A DNA stretch of 64,000 nt, from the NCBI RefSeq assembly GCF_003790525.1, contig NZ_CP033635.1. The stretch is one strand, 5' to 3'. Positions within the stretch are counted from its first letter, which is position 1. Every line of letters starts with the position of its first letter. The notes beneath the pieces were generated by a model that did not search any database, had not been told where the DNA came from, and was given only the letters and a program-made list of their open reading frames with translations. The translations under genes and the position numbers were made by a program. Shown here in pieces: positions 47,520-53,240 of this stretch. This DNA comes from Escherichia coli (GTDB lineage Bacteria > Pseudomonadota > Gammaproteobacteria > Enterobacterales > Enterobacteriaceae).

Positions 47520-49499
47520 ATGGGCAGACCGTTAAAAACTTTATTCAAACGTGAGCATAGTGAAGAAATCAGTAACCCGAGCGATAACCGCGCGTTTTCG
47601 CAGGTGGCGGAAGTTTATTTGTCACGCCGCCGTCTGTTACAGGCCGGCACGGTCGCCGGTGCCGCGGCAGCGTTCCCATTTCTGCTGAAACAGGAAAACG
47701 CGCTGGCGAAAGTGGTCTCCAAAGCAAGCGGTAACCTCGGCAAAGCGACGACGCTCGGTTTCACCAGCCTGCCGGTTTCCACGGAAGATACCGTTATCGT
47801 GCCGGAAGGATACATCGCGAAGCCCTTCTACAAATGGGGCGACGCCACCGGGATTGCCGGAAATCTGCCGGTTTTTAAAACCGACGGTAGCAACACCACG
47901 GAAGAACAGGCGGCGCAGGCCGGGATGCACCACGACGGCATGGCGTGGTTTAGCCTGCCGCAGGGCGGGAACAGCTCCGATCACGGCCTGCTTGCCATAA
48001 ACCATGAATACATCGATAACGGTCTACTGTTTAAAGATGGCGATGCCAACTGGAGCGCCGATAAAGCTCTTAAAGGCCAGAACGCGATGGGCGTGTCGGT
48101 CATTGAAGTAAAAAAAGTGCCCCTGGGCTGGGAAGTGGTGCGCCCGTCATCGTTCGCACGCCGTATCACCGTTAACACGCCGATGAAAATCACCGGTCCG
48201 GCGCTGCATAACCCACTGATGCAAACAGTTGACGATCCGAAAGGCGAAATCATTCTCGGCACCATGCAGAACTGTGCCAACGGATTTACGCCGTGGGGCA
48301 CCTATCTGACGTGTGAAGAGAACTGGTCCGATATTTTCGTAAAAAAAGCAGAGATGAACCCGCTGGAAAAACGTTACGGTATCAGCGGGAGCGACGACTC
48401 TTACCGCTGGAACGAAGTGGATAAAAGGTTCAGCGTCGACGCCACGCCGAACGAGCCGAACCGCTTCGGCTGGGTGGTGGAAATCGATCCATACGATCCG
48501 CATTCAGTGCCGCGCAAGCACACCGCGCTTGGTCGCATCAAACACGAAGGCGCGGCGGTGACAATTGCCCCGGATAACCGCGTTGTGGTCTATATGGGCG
48601 ATGACCAGAAATTCGAATACATATATAAATTTGTCTCGGAAGGAAAATTCAACCCGCAGGATCGCAAAGCCAACATGCACCTGCTGGAAAAAGGCACTCT
48701 GTACGTGGCGAAATTTAACGACGACGGCAAAGGCGAGTGGCTACCGCTGGTGTTCGGACAAAATGGGCTCGACGCCAGTAAAGGGTTTGAAAACCAGGGC
48801 GACCTGTTGATTAAAACCCGTCTGGCGGCAGACGCCGTGGGGGCCACTAAAATGGACCGCCCGGAGTGGATTGCGGTCGATCCATATCACGCCGGCAGCG
48901 TTTACTGCACGCTCACCAACAACAGCGATCGCGGTACGGAAGGAAAAGCGCCAGTGGATGCGGCCAACCCGCGCGCCAAAAACGTTTACGGCCACATCAT
49001 TCACTGGCTGGAGCATAACGGCGACCCGACCGCGCTGCAGTTTGCCTGGGATATTCTTGTGATGGGCGGTCGCACCGATACGGACAAACCGGAAACCAAA
49101 GGCAGCATGAAGGGTGCGGAATTCGGCAGCGCCGATGGCCTGAGCTTCGATCACCGCGGCGTGCTATGGATCCAGACCGACGTGTCGTCATCAACCATCA
49201 ATAGTAAAGATTACAAAGGCATGGGCAACAACCAGATGGTGGCGACGATCCCCGGTACCAATGAGTTCCGCCGCTTCCTGACCGGCCCGCGCGGCTGCGA
49301 AATCACCGGCATCGCGTTCACTCCGGATAACCGGACGCTGTTTATTAACATCCAGCACCCTGGCGAGCCAAGCGAAGGGCTTAGCGATCCGCAGCATCCG
49401 ACGGCAGTATCAAGCTGGCCTGACGGCGATAAGGCTGGTCGTCCGCGCTCCTCAACTGTCGTTATCGTAAAAGCCGACGGCGGCATAATCGGCACCTGA
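47520..49499 (+). CDS. PhoX-family (DUF839) phosphatase with twin-arginine signal peptide
   Basis: 659 aa; Tat motif SRRRLLQAGTVAGAAAA near the N-terminus; length and composition fit PhoX-type alkaline phosphatases. Confidence 0.65.
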   Translation: MGRPLKTLFKREHSEEISNPSDNRAFSQVAEVYLSRRRLLQAGTVAGAAAAFPFLLKQENALAKVVSKASGNLGKATTLGFTSLPVSTEDTVIVPEGYIAKPFYKWGDATGIAGNLPVFKTDGSNTTEEQAAQAGMHHDGMAWFSLPQGGNSSDHGLLAINHEYIDNGLLFKDGDANWSADKALKGQNAMGVSVIEVKKVPLGWEVVRPSSFARRITVNTPMKITGPALHNPLMQTVDDPKGEIILGTMQNCANGFTPWGTYLTCEENWSDIFVKKAEMNPLEKRYGISGSDDSYRWNEVDKRFSVDATPNEPNRFGWVVEIDPYDPHSVPRKHTALGRIKHEGAAVTIAPDNRVVVYMGDDQKFEYIYKFVSEGKFNPQDRKANMHLLEKGTLYVAKFNDDGKGEWLPLVFGQNGLDASKGFENQGDLLIKTRLAADAVGATKMDRPEWIAVDPYHAGSVYCTLTNNSDRGTEGKAPVDAANPRAKNVYGHIIHWLEHNGDPTALQFAWDILVMGGRTDTDKPETKGSMKGAEFGSADGLSFDHRGVLWIQTDVSSSTINSKDYKGMGNNQMVATIPGTNEFRRFLTGPRGCEITGIAFTPDNRTLFINIQHPGEPSEGLSDPQHPTAVSSWPDGDKAGRPRSSTVVIVKADGGIIGT

Positions 49500-49549: not shown

Positions 49550-49960
49550 ATGGTAAAGTCCTGTCAGTCCGCGCGCTGGCTTCCTTCAACGCTTTGTCGT
49601 AATTTTTGTCAGTCTGCTCGTAGTCTGGAATGCCCGGAATTCCTCAACGCTATGCCACTGTTCAGGCGCGGTGTGATGAGAGTGGCGTCGCTGGGTTATG
49701 CCTTTCCGGGCACGATTCTGGCGATTGGTTTTCTGACTCCCTAAATGACCGCTGGCTGTCGGAACTACTGGATTACAGGGGGTTACCTTTAATGTCTGTC
49801 GGTGATTTGCTGTACGATGCGATTTCAGGCAATAGCCATCGGCGCACTTGATGTCCGGCTGGGACGTATACCAGCGTCACTGGAACAAGCCTCACGTCTG
49901 CTGGGAGAAAATGGTACAGGAACTTTTGTTCGGGTTCACTTTCCTGTGTTGCTCTGGTGA
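49550..49960 (+). pseudogene. Degenerate ABC-transporter permease gene fragments (iron/thiamine-type), multiple frameshifts
   Basis: Three frames carry permease-like pieces (...MRVASLGYAFPGTILAIGFL...; ...SSALLVFTDAMKELPVTLL...); the last is fused to a transposase fragment. Confidence 0.45.
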
Positions 49961-50328
49961 GCAGTGCCCTGCTGGTTTTCACTGATGCGATGAAAGAACT
50001 GCCAGTAACACTTCTTTATTCCGAATCGCTCTTCCGGACGATTAAGTATTGTTCATGGTGGCCGGAGAATGGTTTTCGAACCATAGATGAAGCCAGAAGT
50101 TGGTTAAGCAAGTTCACGCAATGGTACAACCTGGAACACAAGCACAGCGGTATTAAGTATGTTACTCCGGATGAACGCCATCGCGGAATTGATGCACAAA
50201 TACTGGAAGCCAGAAAAAAAGTTTATCGCGAAGCTCGCAAGCGTCATCCTGAGCGCTGGAGCAAACAGTTGCGTGACTGGGAACTCATTCAGGCAGTTTA
50301 TCTGAATCCAGAAAAAGAAGCGGCATAA
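49957..50328 (+). pseudogene. Transposase C-terminal fragment (DDE integrase-core type) fused to the permease remnant
   Basis: ...FRTIDEARSWLSKFTQWYNLEHKHSGIKYVTPDERHRG... resembles the conserved C-terminus of integrase-core transposases. Confidence 0.45.
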
Positions 50329-50699
50329 CGTAATTTTATTACATCAGGCGACAACTACCTTGAAAAACGCCGGAAATAACTGACTCTTTACCCGCAGCCA
50401 TGCAGTGGGCTTTTTTATATCCCCCCTTCACAAACTCTGCTCACTGGTTATACCGGTTCACCTTTCCGGCTTGTAACCGCATGCACTCTGGACTGCCAGT
50501 CAGCTCATGTATGTCTCTTCCTTAATTGTGTTCATGAACAGGTGACACCTTATCTCCTGACAGAATAAACAAATTTTATTAATTCTGCTCTTCGCCAGCC
50601 CACTGCTACCATCTGTCGCGACGGGGCATGGCTGCCTGCATGGCATGCATTTGTTGTGTCTGTGCTGACTGAATACGATAAAAATTTCTGGTTAATGAC

Positions 50700-50725
50700 G
50701 ATCGATATCATCGATCGATTCGATC
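50700..50725. promoter_or_regulatory. Cluster of three GATC (Dam) sites in a cgatcgat direct-repeat array, 90-115 bp upstream of the OMP gene
   Basis: GATC at 50700, 50713 and 50722 within gacGATCgatatcatcGATCgattcGATCgatttt. Confidence 0.4.
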
Positions 50726-50815
50726 GATTTTATTCGATTGAGGCTATCGCATGGCGGGTTTTAAAATGCACTGAGTACTGCTTGCAGCAACGGAGCAATA
50801 ACGGAGATAATTGAA

Positions 50816-51556
50816 ATGAAAAAGGTTTTTGCTGTTTCAGTGGTGGCCGCAGCCTGTGTATTTGCAGCAAATGCAGGTGCTGAGGAAGGTAAAAGCGGTT
50901 TTTATCTGACCGGTAAAGCCGGTACCTCTGTGGTGTCACTTTCAGACCAGCGTTTCCTGTCAGGAGATGAGGAAGAAACGTCAAAGTATAAAGGCGGCGA
51001 TGACCATGATACGGTATTCAGTGGTGGTATCGCGGCTGGTTATGATTTTTATCCGCAGTTCAGTATTCCGGTTCGTACAGAACTGGAGTTTTACGCTCGT
51101 GGAAAAGCTGATTCGAAGTATAACGTAGATAAAGACAGTTGGTCAGGTGGTTACTGGCGTGATGACCTGAAGAATGAGGTGTCAGTCAACACACTAATGC
51201 TGAATGCGTACTATGACTTCCGGAATGACAGCGCATTCACACCTTGGATATCTGCAGGGATTGGCTACGCCAGAATTCACCAGAAAACAACCGGTATCAG
51301 TACCTGGGATTATGAGTACGGAAGCAGTGGTCGCGAATCGTTGTCACGTTCAGGCTCTGCTGACAACTTCGCATGGAGCCTTGGCGCGGGTGTCCGCTAT
51401 GACGTAACCCCGGACATCGCTCTGGACCTCAGCTATCGCTATCTTGATGCAGGTGACAGCAGTGTGAGTTACAAGGACGAGTGGGGCGATAAATATAAGT
51501 CAGAAGTTGATGTTAAAAGTCATGACATCATGCTTGGTATGACTTATAACTTCTGA
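50816..51556 (+). CDS. Small outer-membrane beta-barrel protein of the Hek/Tia/Hra (opacity-like adhesin/invasin) type
   Basis: 246 aa; signal peptide MKKVFAVSVVAAACVFAANA; alternating-hydrophobic beta strands; C-terminal ...GMTYNF; RBS GGAG upstream. Confidence 0.65.
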   Translation: MKKVFAVSVVAAACVFAANAGAEEGKSGFYLTGKAGTSVVSLSDQRFLSGDEEETSKYKGGDDHDTVFSGGIAAGYDFYPQFSIPVRTELEFYARGKADSKYNVDKDSWSGGYWRDDLKNEVSVNTLMLNAYYDFRNDSAFTPWISAGIGYARIHQKTTGISTWDYEYGSSGRESLSRSGSADNFAWSLGAGVRYDVTPDIALDLSYRYLDAGDSSVSYKDEWGDKYKSEVDVKSHDIMLGMTYNF

Positions 51557-51634
51557 CGACACTGCTCCTGAACGATAATTGCGTATATTCTGTAATTAAG
51601 ATAATTGCATATCTTCTGCAATTAAACAGAAACA

Positions 51635-51670
51635 CCCTGCAGTCTATTGCTGCAGGGTTGTCTGTTATCT
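51635..51670 (+). terminator. Intrinsic terminator after the OMP gene
   Basis: CCCTGCAG-tctattg-CTGCAGGG hairpin followed by a T-rich run (ttgtctgttatctgtttt). Confidence 0.6.
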
Positions 51671-51737
51671 GTTTTACAGATAATTTCTGATTTTTATTAT
51701 CCTGTTCTCTTCATAATAATGTTGTCGATATACTCCG

Positions 51738-53240
51738 ATGAATATCAGAAAACTGTTTTGTCCGGGCGACACACCCCGGATTTTATTGTTTTTATTCTTT
51801 TTTGTTATTTCTGTGATAATCACAATTGCATGCGGATACACTGAGAAGAATGCCACAGGAAATGTGCTGCTTCTGTTTCTCCTTCTGCTCCTTGCACACA
51901 GAAATACCCTCACATCCATTACAACGCTGTTATTTCTGTTCTGTTGTGCACTGTATGCGCCTGCGGGTATGACGTACGGTAAAATCAACAACAGTTTTAT
52001 TGTCGCGTTGCTGCAGACCACGGCTGATGAGGCTGCAGAGTTTACCGGGATGATTCCTGTTTATCATTTTCTGGTCAGTGCCGCGATTCTGGTATTCATG
52101 GTGATTTTCTGGCGGACACACCACCGCGGTCACCGTAACTGGCTGGCACTGCTGCTGTTCGTATTATGCTCTGTAAACAGCTGGCCGTTGCGGATGGTTA
52201 AAGGAACTGTTGTGGGGACAACTGACACATTGCGTGAAATGCAACATTATAAACAACTGAGTCAGCACGGGGCTGACAACTGGAAAATCCTGCCGGGAAC
52301 ACCGTTATATGACACAATTGTTATTGTCACTGGTGAGAGTGTGCGCAGGGATTATATGTCGGTATATGGCTATCCCGTGCCAACCACGCCGTGGCTGAAT
52401 ACGGCTCCCGGTTTATTTATTGACGGCTATACATCGGCAGCAGCCAGTACCGTACCTTCCCTGAGCCGGACACTGATTTATGACTATGAGCAGAACCCTG
52501 ACTCCGGCAACAACGTGGTGGCGCTGGCAGCAAAAGCAGGATACAGCACATGGTGGATATCCAATCAGGGAAAGCTGGGGGAGCATGATACACGCATCTC
52601 TGTTATTGCTTCTGATGCGGAGCATACCGTTTTCCTCAAGAAAGGCAGCTTTGCTTCCCGTAAAACGGATGACATGTTGTTGTTACAGGAAACAGAACGT
52701 GCACTGGCGGATAAATCCTCTCCGAAGGTGATATTCCTGCACATGATTGGCTCTCATCCGAATCCGTGTGACCGACTTAACTCCTGGCCGAATCATTACC
52801 TGGAGCAGTATCCCCGAAAGGTTGCCTGTTACCTCGCCAGCATCAGTAAACTGGATAACTTTCTCGGTCAGCTTGATGGTATCCTTCGCCGGCATTCCCG
52901 TCATTTCGTCATGCTTTACTTTTCTGACCATGGGCTGTCGGTCAGCGACAGTGCTAATCCTGTTCATCATGATGGTCATGTGCAGGGAGGCTACAGCGTT
53001 CCCCTGATTATTACCGCCAGTGATATCACGTCTCATCAGTCCGTCAGCAGAAAAATCAGTGCCCGTCATTTCGCAGGTATTTTTCAGTGGCTGACCGGCA
53101 TTCGTACTGAAAATATACCGCCATTCAATCCGCTGACAGACGAAGATAATGAACCCGTTATGGTTTTTAACGGAGAGAGGAATGTACTGGCAGACAGTCT
53201 GAAACCACAGCCTCTGATTCTTCCGGTCAAGGGAAAATAA
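51738..53240 (+). CDS. Phosphoethanolamine-transferase-like membrane protein (EptA/OpgE sulfatase superfamily)
   Basis: 500 aa; N-terminal TM helices plus C-terminal sulfatase-like domain with ...IVIVTGESVRRDYMSVYGY... motif. Confidence 0.7.
   Translation: MNIRKLFCPGDTPRILLFLFFFVISVIITIACGYTEKNATGNVLLLFLLLLLAHRNTLTSITTLLFLFCCALYAPAGMTYGKINNSFIVALLQTTADEAAEFTGMIPVYHFLVSAAILVFMVIFWRTHHRGHRNWLALLLFVLCSVNSWPLRMVKGTVVGTTDTLREMQHYKQLSQHGADNWKILPGTPLYDTIVIVTGESVRRDYMSVYGYPVPTTPWLNTAPGLFIDGYTSAAASTVPSLSRTLIYDYEQNPDSGNNVVALAAKAGYSTWWISNQGKLGEHDTRISVIASDAEHTVFLKKGSFASRKTDDMLLLQETERALADKSSPKVIFLHMIGSHPNPCDRLNSWPNHYLEQYPRKVACYLASISKLDNFLGQLDGILRRHSRHFVMLYFSDHGLSVSDSANPVHHDGHVQGGYSVPLIITASDITSHQSVSRKISARHFAGIFQWLTGIRTENIPPFNPLTDEDNEPVMVFNGERNVLADSLKPQPLILPVKGK

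Follow-up and report, generated by a model that had tools for sequence, protein, structure and literature searches.

Outer-membrane adhesins of the Hra family (Hek, Hra1, Hes and Tia) are virulence markers in extraintestinal pathogenic, enteroaggregative and enterotoxigenic Escherichia coli and in E. coli that make Shiga toxin (STEC) and are negative for the locus of enterocyte effacement, and on described pathogenicity islands their genes have been found next to a gene listed as a sulfatase without an assigned function. The subtilase-encoding pathogenicity island (SE-PAI) has the order integrase-shiA-sulphatase-tia-subAB, module I of LAA, the adhesion and autoaggregation locus, reads int-sisA-sulfatase-hes, with hes beside the 'sulfatase' ORF4 (PMC5539235), and the core published as 'PAI-0' is a 'sulfatase ORF plus tia'. 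A published survey, moreover, recorded putative phosphoethanolamine (PEtN) transferases, named 'YjgX or YhbX', in each case where one of its pheU, pheV or selC sites was occupied. Here we analyse such a pair in a 64,000-nucleotide stretch of E. coli DNA (contig NZ_CP033635.1 of assembly GCF_003790525.1; hereafter the window), in which a gene for a 246-aa outer-membrane protein (OMP) is followed by one for a 500-aa predicted PEtN transferase. As the pairing of adhesin and transferase is already in the literature for particular islands, the novelty of the locus is lower than an earlier note, made from the letters of this DNA, had scored it. On the reading that we favour, and consider probable rather than secure, the two genes would form a conserved surface module, placed at that end of a selC island which is nearer the integrase; within it, an adhesin subject to allele exchange and an OpgE-like transferase would be separate transcription units joined by shared residence.

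The product of the first gene matches the Pfam family OMP_b-brl (E 5e-21) and, more weakly, OmpA_membrane and Opacity. It is 90% identical to the Hra1-type adhesin, 88% to Hes, 84% to the Hek type, 62-63% to Tia and 62% to the Hra2 type; NCBI gives the name 'invasion outer membrane protein Tia' to proteins that are 62% identical to it, and 'adhesin/virulence factor Hek' to the closer clusters (82-94% identity). The assignment of named alleles relies on published primers and published identities rather than on the E. coli 042 hra1 or RS218 hek genes themselves: Hes was recognised as a protein (P0177) that starts MIEIKKVIV and contains NQRLID, matching the published hes primers (PMC5539235), and the Hra1-type allele is that of two loci (L005 and L006) containing the published hra1 cloning primer. 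The cross-identities that we computed reproduce the published matrix for Hes, Hra1, Hek, Tia and Hra2, in which Hes is 90% identical to Hra1, 86% to Hek and 65% to both Tia and Hra2 (PMC5539235).

The adhesin was modelled with AlphaFold 2 (predicted local distance difference test score, pLDDT, 85.6), and the model shows eight long strands together with a signal helix. In a Foldseek search of the PDB, the model came closest to NspA, the OmpA barrel, Ail, OmpX and OmpW; the best PDB sequence match is Opa60, and the protein ends in TYNF, with a C-terminal Phe. This agrees with the marks of the Hra family, which are a signal peptide, an eight-stranded barrel with four long external loops, and a C-terminal Phe. 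Taken from sequence and model, the window adhesin is a predicted eight-stranded beta-barrel of the Hra family and an allele of its Hra1/Hek/Hes subgroup. A housekeeping OmpX/OmpW barrel was ruled out by marginal matches to OmpW and Ail_Lom (Pfam E 4e-4 and 0.48, respectively) and by a score of 20 bits against an NCBIfam OmpW cut-off of 287. Tia itself was ruled out both by amino-acid identity and by a synonymous divergence (dS) of 1.47 from the tia allele. The earlier note had placed the OMP in the Hek/Hra/Tia family, which agrees with these results, and had suggested 'tia or a relative', of which only the second half stands.

The second gene encodes a protein with a Pfam Sulfatase domain (residues 193-446, E 9e-37), a weak match to EptA_B_N (residues 44-172) and five hydrophobic segments within residues 6-155, in keeping with its earlier description as an EptA/OpgE-type membrane protein. 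It is shorter not only than EptA (547 aa), EptB (563 aa) and EptC (577 aa) of K-12, as had been remarked, but also than OpgE (527 aa) and YhbX (541 aa). In the alignment, the catalytic and metal-binding positions of EptA, EptB, EptC and OpgE are matched by E200, T238, H335, H340, D397, H398 and H411, and all seven are invariant in 39 homologues with the exception of H411, which is kept in at least 90%. Its AlphaFold 2 model (pLDDT 88.5) matches the periplasmic domain of EcEptC (E 6e-19) and aligns over its full length to MCR-1 and NmEptA. Domain order, fold and active-site residues place the protein among the membrane PEtN transferases (EptA/MCR/OpgE type) of the alkaline-phosphatase superfamily.

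Since fold and active site are as in EptA, MCR-1 and EptC, one alternative is that the enzyme is an EptA-, EptC- or MCR-like transferase acting on lipid A or the lipopolysaccharide (LPS) core, in which case it would reduce the negative charge of the surface and confer resistance to polymyxin and cationic peptides as an independent fitness gene of the island. The top NCBIfam and PDB sequence matches, CptA/EptC, point the same way, as do homologues annotated 'lipid A phosphoethanolamine transferase', although these names are automatic annotations. The closest K-12 paralogue, however, is OpgE (31% identity over 493 residues, the full length, with 234 bits), the enzyme that places PEtN on osmoregulated periplasmic glucans (PMC3818809). 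Identity to YhbX is 32% over the catalytic domain only, and identities to EptC, EptB and EptA are 23%, 23% and 22%, those to EptB and EptA again covering the catalytic domain only. All NCBIfam scores lie below their cut-offs, with CptA at 110 bits against 404, EptB at 51 against 493, EptA at 37-56 against 561-660, and the MCR models at less than 35 bits, far under theirs.

In a neighbour-joining tree, the transferase falls into a clade of about 500-aa proteins from Salmonella, Erwinia, an STEC plasmid, Pantoea, Enterobacter lignolyticus and Aquitalea (98% bootstrap), which is sister to the OpgE clade (88%; the OpgE clade itself has 98%) and apart from YhbX, EptC, EptB and EptA. Orthology to the core enzymes EptA, EptB and EptC is ruled out by the identities of 22-23% and by scores of 36-110 bits for cut-offs of 404-660, and orthology to OpgE by the sister-clade position and by the fact that E. 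coli keeps its own opgE. The gene is, on sequence and model, a predicted inner-membrane PEtN transferase with all catalytic residues, belonging to a clade sister to OpgE. Because identity to EptA and EptB is 22-23% and the protein clusters with OpgE, lipid A appears the less likely acceptor, which narrows the earlier proposal that lipid A, LPS core or another surface structure is modified, and we regard a lipid A or LPS-core enzyme as unlikely.

The remnant yjgX gene of K-12 at leuX is about 92% identical to the window gene at the nucleotide level, and the transferase is, as judged from this similarity, the intact counterpart of that pseudogene. Broken copies are frequent (K-12 yjgX, insertion sequence (IS) insertions in strain TUM9803 and other genomes, and large clusters of 326-445-aa fragments), as they would be if the gene were a decaying passenger, kept only by its position between the integrase and a selected adhesin. 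The intact alleles, however, are under purifying selection (omega 0.11-0.23, with dS reaching 0.24) and have lost none of the catalytic residues; 180 contigs carry the exact 500-aa protein, whose 90% cluster comprises 8941 members, and in other genera the family is conserved as a chromosomal gene. We therefore consider a passenger distinctly unlikely.

Several look-alikes were set aside during this work. Lpt-O (Opt), the 506-aa O-antigen PEtN transferase of a Shigella flexneri plasmid (pSFxv_2), has no similarity to the window protein and belongs to the lipoteichoic acid synthase family, and a Klebsiella pneumoniae paper on 'post-translational modification of fimbriae' is about histidine oxidation rather than PEtN. 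The papers found on yjgX treat it either as a false-positive control, in a defensin screen, or as an integration site for engineering. In the core genome of K-12 (L026, 1451-3598), ompX and opgE are adjacent and convergent, a resemblance to the pair that is probably coincidence.

To what extent the two genes travel together was measured in 5426 complete E. coli genomes. With megablast, the adhesin was detected in 1236 genomes and the transferase in 2974, at 5076 places and in many cases truncated; with the more sensitive blastn, the contiguous pair (at least 80% query coverage) was found in at least 1368 genomes, in some of which the adhesin is annotated as tia. The pair lies beside P4-type integrases at selC, pheU, pheV (including LAA) and leuX, separated from the integrase by variable content: a tetratricopeptide repeat (TPR) gene, sisA/shiA, an AAA protein, or nothing. 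Sliding-window identity showed that homology with the pheV and leuX loci is confined to about 50700-53225, from some 115 nt before the adhesin start codon to the transferase stop codon, and the pair is thus a discrete module of about 2.5 kb. The transferase follows tia, hra1 and hes alike, and one Salmonella lineage possesses the pair with both members diverged, identity being down to 54% for the OMP and 56.5% for the transferase.

Comparison with the tia locus separates the histories of the two genes. Between the window and tia, the adhesin genes differ by a dS of 1.47 and the transferase genes by one of 0.11; the transferase beside tia is 97.2% identical to that of the window, whereas the adhesins are only 63% identical, differing mainly in their external loops. 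Since, in addition, identity jumps at the 3' end of the adhesin gene, we interpret the pattern as old adhesin alleles that may have recombined onto a young, conserved backbone, with no co-variation of adhesin and transferase. An independent published observation is of the same kind: tia was found unusually diverged beside a conserved sulfatase ORF.

The same data bear on a functional pair, in which the Hra-family adhesin itself, or some other surface protein, would receive PEtN from the transferase, with adhesion or antigenicity tuned as a result. PEtN transferases that modify proteins do exist, PptA and Campylobacter EptC acting on pilin and FlgG. The synteny is very tight, with sharp block edges at four tRNA sites, with three to four adhesin types and also in Salmonella, and in a second selC island (L015) an unrelated, YhbX-like PEtN transferase occupies the equivalent slot near an Hra2-like OMP. 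Yet the near-invariant transferase sits beside strongly divergent adhesins, and its homologues (39-53% identity) in Erwinia, Pantoea, Enterobacter lignolyticus and an STEC plasmid have no such OMP neighbour. Conversely, some Hra-like genes of Salmonella and Providencia lack the transferase; a 195-aa ORF that follows a Salmonella Hra-like gene was tested as a transferase remnant and is not one. Hes cloned alone in HB101 gives haemagglutination, aggregation and adherence (PMC5539235), the transferase copy of K-12 is a pseudogene, and the two genes appear to be separate transcription units. The tight physical linkage of the pair is shown; because transferase relatives occur unpaired and adhesins are active when cloned alone, functional coupling is not, and we consider it very improbable. 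Of the earlier suggestion that the two genes are co-selected, it is the synteny that survives, functional dependence being left unsupported.

Transcription would also separate the two genes. The 181-nt spacer, in which the earlier note had placed a terminator, holds a strong terminator-like hairpin (Table 1) of which other E. coli loci keep the stem while the loop varies. It also holds the promoter-like site that ranked best in the region, which lies 38 nt ahead of the start codon of the transferase gene. As hairpin and promoter-like site lie between the genes, the transferase probably forms its own transcription unit. Inspection by eye of the DNA before the transferase gene gave no convincing PhoP/PmrA-type box.

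The adhesin gene, for its part, is preceded by a conserved element that consists of a CGATAAA box (50676-50682), three GATC sites, a -35-like TTGAGG (50738-50743) and a -10-like TAAAAT (50762-50767). The GATC triad, GATCGATatcatCGATCGATtCGATCGAT at 50700-50728, precedes the start codon of the adhesin gene by about 95-115 nt, its sites at 50700, 50713 and 50722 being spaced by 13 and 9 bp so that GATCG-N7-CGATC (50700-50716) is followed by a third ATCG. This spacing, and a position of -88 to -126 relative to the start codon, recur in all E. coli and Salmonella Hra-family loci examined (Hra1-type, tia, Hra2-like and two Salmonella lineages), and the spacing is kept although the coding regions are 50-60% diverged and the surrounding DNA is otherwise poorly conserved. 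At one pheU locus (strain 26561; L002, 10121-10129) the third GATC is mutated to GATA, which could make it a locked variant if the switch discussed below is real.

GATCG-N7-CGATC occurs once in the window, for an expectation of 0.09, and the same palindrome form is found in the regulatory region of K-12 flu (agn43) and twice in that of phage P22 gtr, both of which are described Dam/OxyR phase-variation switches (review PMC13076061). A local alignment of the element to the flu region (55 nt) scored 42, compared with 16.2 +/- 2.5 for shuffled sequences, none of 2000 of which scored as high. BLAST of the upstream element against phages returned no match, and the P22 gtr region was read directly instead. 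As OxyR/Dam switches use an element of this three-GATC form, we predict ON/OFF phase variation: the Hra-family genes (hra1, hek, hes, tia, the hra2-like genes and the window allele) may share an OxyR-Dam switch of the agn43/gtr type and hence be phase-variable, a proposal that we put forward tentatively, as a real possibility that falls somewhat short of probable. In a full-text literature search, no paper brought hra1, hek or tia into connection with OxyR or GATC ('hek' in a paper on Dam in uropathogenic E. coli means HEK-293 cells), and a switch-like GATC element in front of the adhesin is apparently undescribed.

A scan for the triad in one genome per species gave 114 loci, mostly chance occurrences in unrelated phyla; seven enterobacterial or E. 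coli-like loci were informative. The roughly 85-nt element, including the -10, also stands upstream of an unrelated exported protein of 151-154 aa in Rahnella, Yokenella, Citrobacter and Pseudocitrobacter. Loci of this kind include L086 3762-4440 (Rahnella laticis), L143 4181-4840 (Yokenella), L121 4469-5390 (Citrobacter sp.), L111 and L101. This protein has a signal peptide and the motif WTSGWGQGVSEF, and its 154-aa form matched no Pfam or NCBIfam family.

Taken together, the locus may work as follows. The adhesin would be expressed from its own promoter, with the three-GATC element just upstream of the -35, and its long external loops would mediate agglutination, autoaggregation and adherence, as in characterised relatives. 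The transferase would face the periplasm with an intact Thr/Zn active site and, by analogy with OpgE, most likely move PEtN from phosphatidylethanolamine to a periplasmic or surface glycan rather than to lipid A. The pair would travel as a block of about 2.5 kb among P4-type islands at selC, pheU, pheV and leuX, with recombination replacing the adhesin allele beside a transferase backbone that hardly varies. The likeliest meaning of the linkage is a shared stay in the stable core of the island, perhaps with a joint benefit for surface remodelling, rather than an obligatory enzyme-substrate pair.

Several points weigh against this account. An identity of 31% to OpgE does not fix the acceptor, and our literature search found no experimental paper on the transferase clade. 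Where the transferase is detectable, it reaches 80% query coverage or more in only 1450 of 2974 genomes, and, since many copies are truncated and K-12 yjgX is a pseudogene, selection on it is not universal. The promoter and terminator in the spacer are consensus matches, and read-through may lead to co-transcription. A complete OxyR site has two half-sites made up of four elements phased at about 10 bp; in the upstream element, the third ATCG comes after 7 nt, and a fourth OxyR element would be shifted by 1 nt or degenerate.

The island itself is inserted at selC, as had been proposed. In the complete genome of strain TUM9803, where the pair is 100% identical to that of the window, yicJ, yicI and yicH follow the tRNA gene, which identifies the site, and from there the island runs leftwards over tens of kilobases, through a P4-type integrase and a TPR gene (Table 1). 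TUM9803 is the only genome with 100% identity over the pair, and an IS3-family element in it (L001, 14605-15922) cuts the transferase to 488 aa; the window gene is intact, whereas the TUM9803 copy has lost its last codons to IS3. In other genomes, IS1 or IS1414 is inserted in the transferase gene.

Table 1. Features of the integrase-proximal part of the selC island, in window coordinates.
Feature	Position	Strand	Description and basis
Conserved upstream element of the adhesin gene	50676-50767	+	CGATAAA box, three GATC sites, -35-like, -10-like
Adhesin ORF	50816-51556	+	246 aa; coordinates exactly as in the earlier note (ORF listing)
Terminator-like hairpin after the adhesin gene	51634-51658	+	fold -26.3 kcal/mol, z = -6.1; T-rich tail follows
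Promoter-like site TTTACA-16-TATTAT	51673-51700	+	10/12 consensus matches; consensus match only
Transferase ORF	51738-53240	+	500 aa; coordinates exactly as in the earlier note (ORF listing)
3' remnant of a YhbX-like transferase gene, about 57 codons, selC island backbone	53275-53439	+	tblastn with K-12 YhbX residues 473-529, 42% identity
TPR-repeat protein, island backbone, 347 aa	53599-54642	-	annotated tetratricopeptide repeat protein
P4-type tyrosine integrase	55054-56238	-	NCBIfam PRK09692, E 1e-94; annotation agrees
tRNA-Sec (selC), island attachment site	56538-56632	-	ARAGORN

Directly after the transferase stop lies the remnant of another transferase gene, the DNA of which aligns with the 3' end of an intact 557-aa YhbX-like gene (15470-17143; 65% identical to YhbX) in the same slot of the selC island L015. 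As the remnant follows the transferase stop and the gene is intact in L015, the adhesin-transferase module would have displaced most of an older backbone gene. The window TPR gene is 92% identical to its equivalent in L015 and also adjoins the tia-transferase pair at pheU; its product has a weak NCBIfam match, below cut-off (E 1e-5), to the type III secretion chaperone SctY.

L015 (10001-19958) is an alternative selC island with the same backbone of integrase and TPR gene as the window. It carries an H-NS-like gene, the Hra2-like OMP, a WYL-domain gene and three ORFs, followed by the YhbX-like transferase; the three ORFs (359, 523 and 88 aa) have no known domains and are possibly a defence cassette. 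Upstream of the adhesin, the window has a PhoX-family phosphatase gene (47520-49499), then what is left of an iron ABC permease gene (about 49596-50043) and a fragment of an IS3 integrase core (about 50041-50328), and this PhoX-remnant block also precedes the pair at pheU in strain 26561 (L002).

For the most part, then, the locus is known biology, an allelic variant of a known adhesin family with its usual neighbour, and what we add is a testable extension without a change of paradigm. It draws attention to a widespread enzyme predicted to modify the envelope, an OpgE-like transferase that rides with these adhesins on the 2.5-kb module, where it is intact and under purifying selection. About 55% of complete E. 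coli genomes have a detectable copy, and its acceptor, whether osmoregulated periplasmic glucan, LPS, another glycan or protein, could affect resistance to antimicrobial peptides, antigenicity or adhesin function. If the GATC switch is real, adhesin expression would be heterogeneous, which bears on adhesion assays, serology and vaccine ideas.

Compared with the known members of the Hra family, the window adhesin shares 62-90% identity, the predicted eight-stranded barrel with conserved strands and variable external loops, and the location on a tRNA-associated pathogenicity island, but it matches no named allele exactly: its signal peptide and first loop are distinct and common to a 92%-identical cluster (P0004). 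Heat-resistant haemagglutination, autoaggregation, adherence or invasion, the phenotypes of the family, are known from its relatives (PMC5539235). The transferase has in common with OpgE the transmembrane helices followed by a periplasmic sulfatase domain with all catalytic residues; it differs in being island-borne beside a core opgE, 27 aa shorter and in a separate clade. K-12 yjgX, on KpLE2 at leuX, belongs to the same family and has the same position beside a P4-type integrase at a tRNA gene; there, the 5' end is missing, the frame is shifted and the adhesin gene is gone, whereas the window copy is intact.

Like agn43, the upstream element has three GATC sites, with pairs 13 bp apart in ATCG-N7-CGAT. 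Relative to agn43 and gtr its second half-site is imperfect; the agn43 element lies downstream of the start site, whereas that of the window lies upstream of the -35, as in gtr. Finally, SE-PAI and LAA share the adhesin-transferase pair with the window and have it oriented as here with respect to a P4-type integrase and a tRNA gene, and LAA agrees in the lengths of the transferase gene (1503 nt) and of the spacer (181 nt). Those islands are at pheV and the window island is at selC, where a TPR gene replaces shiA/sisA, subAB is absent and the adhesin is another allele.

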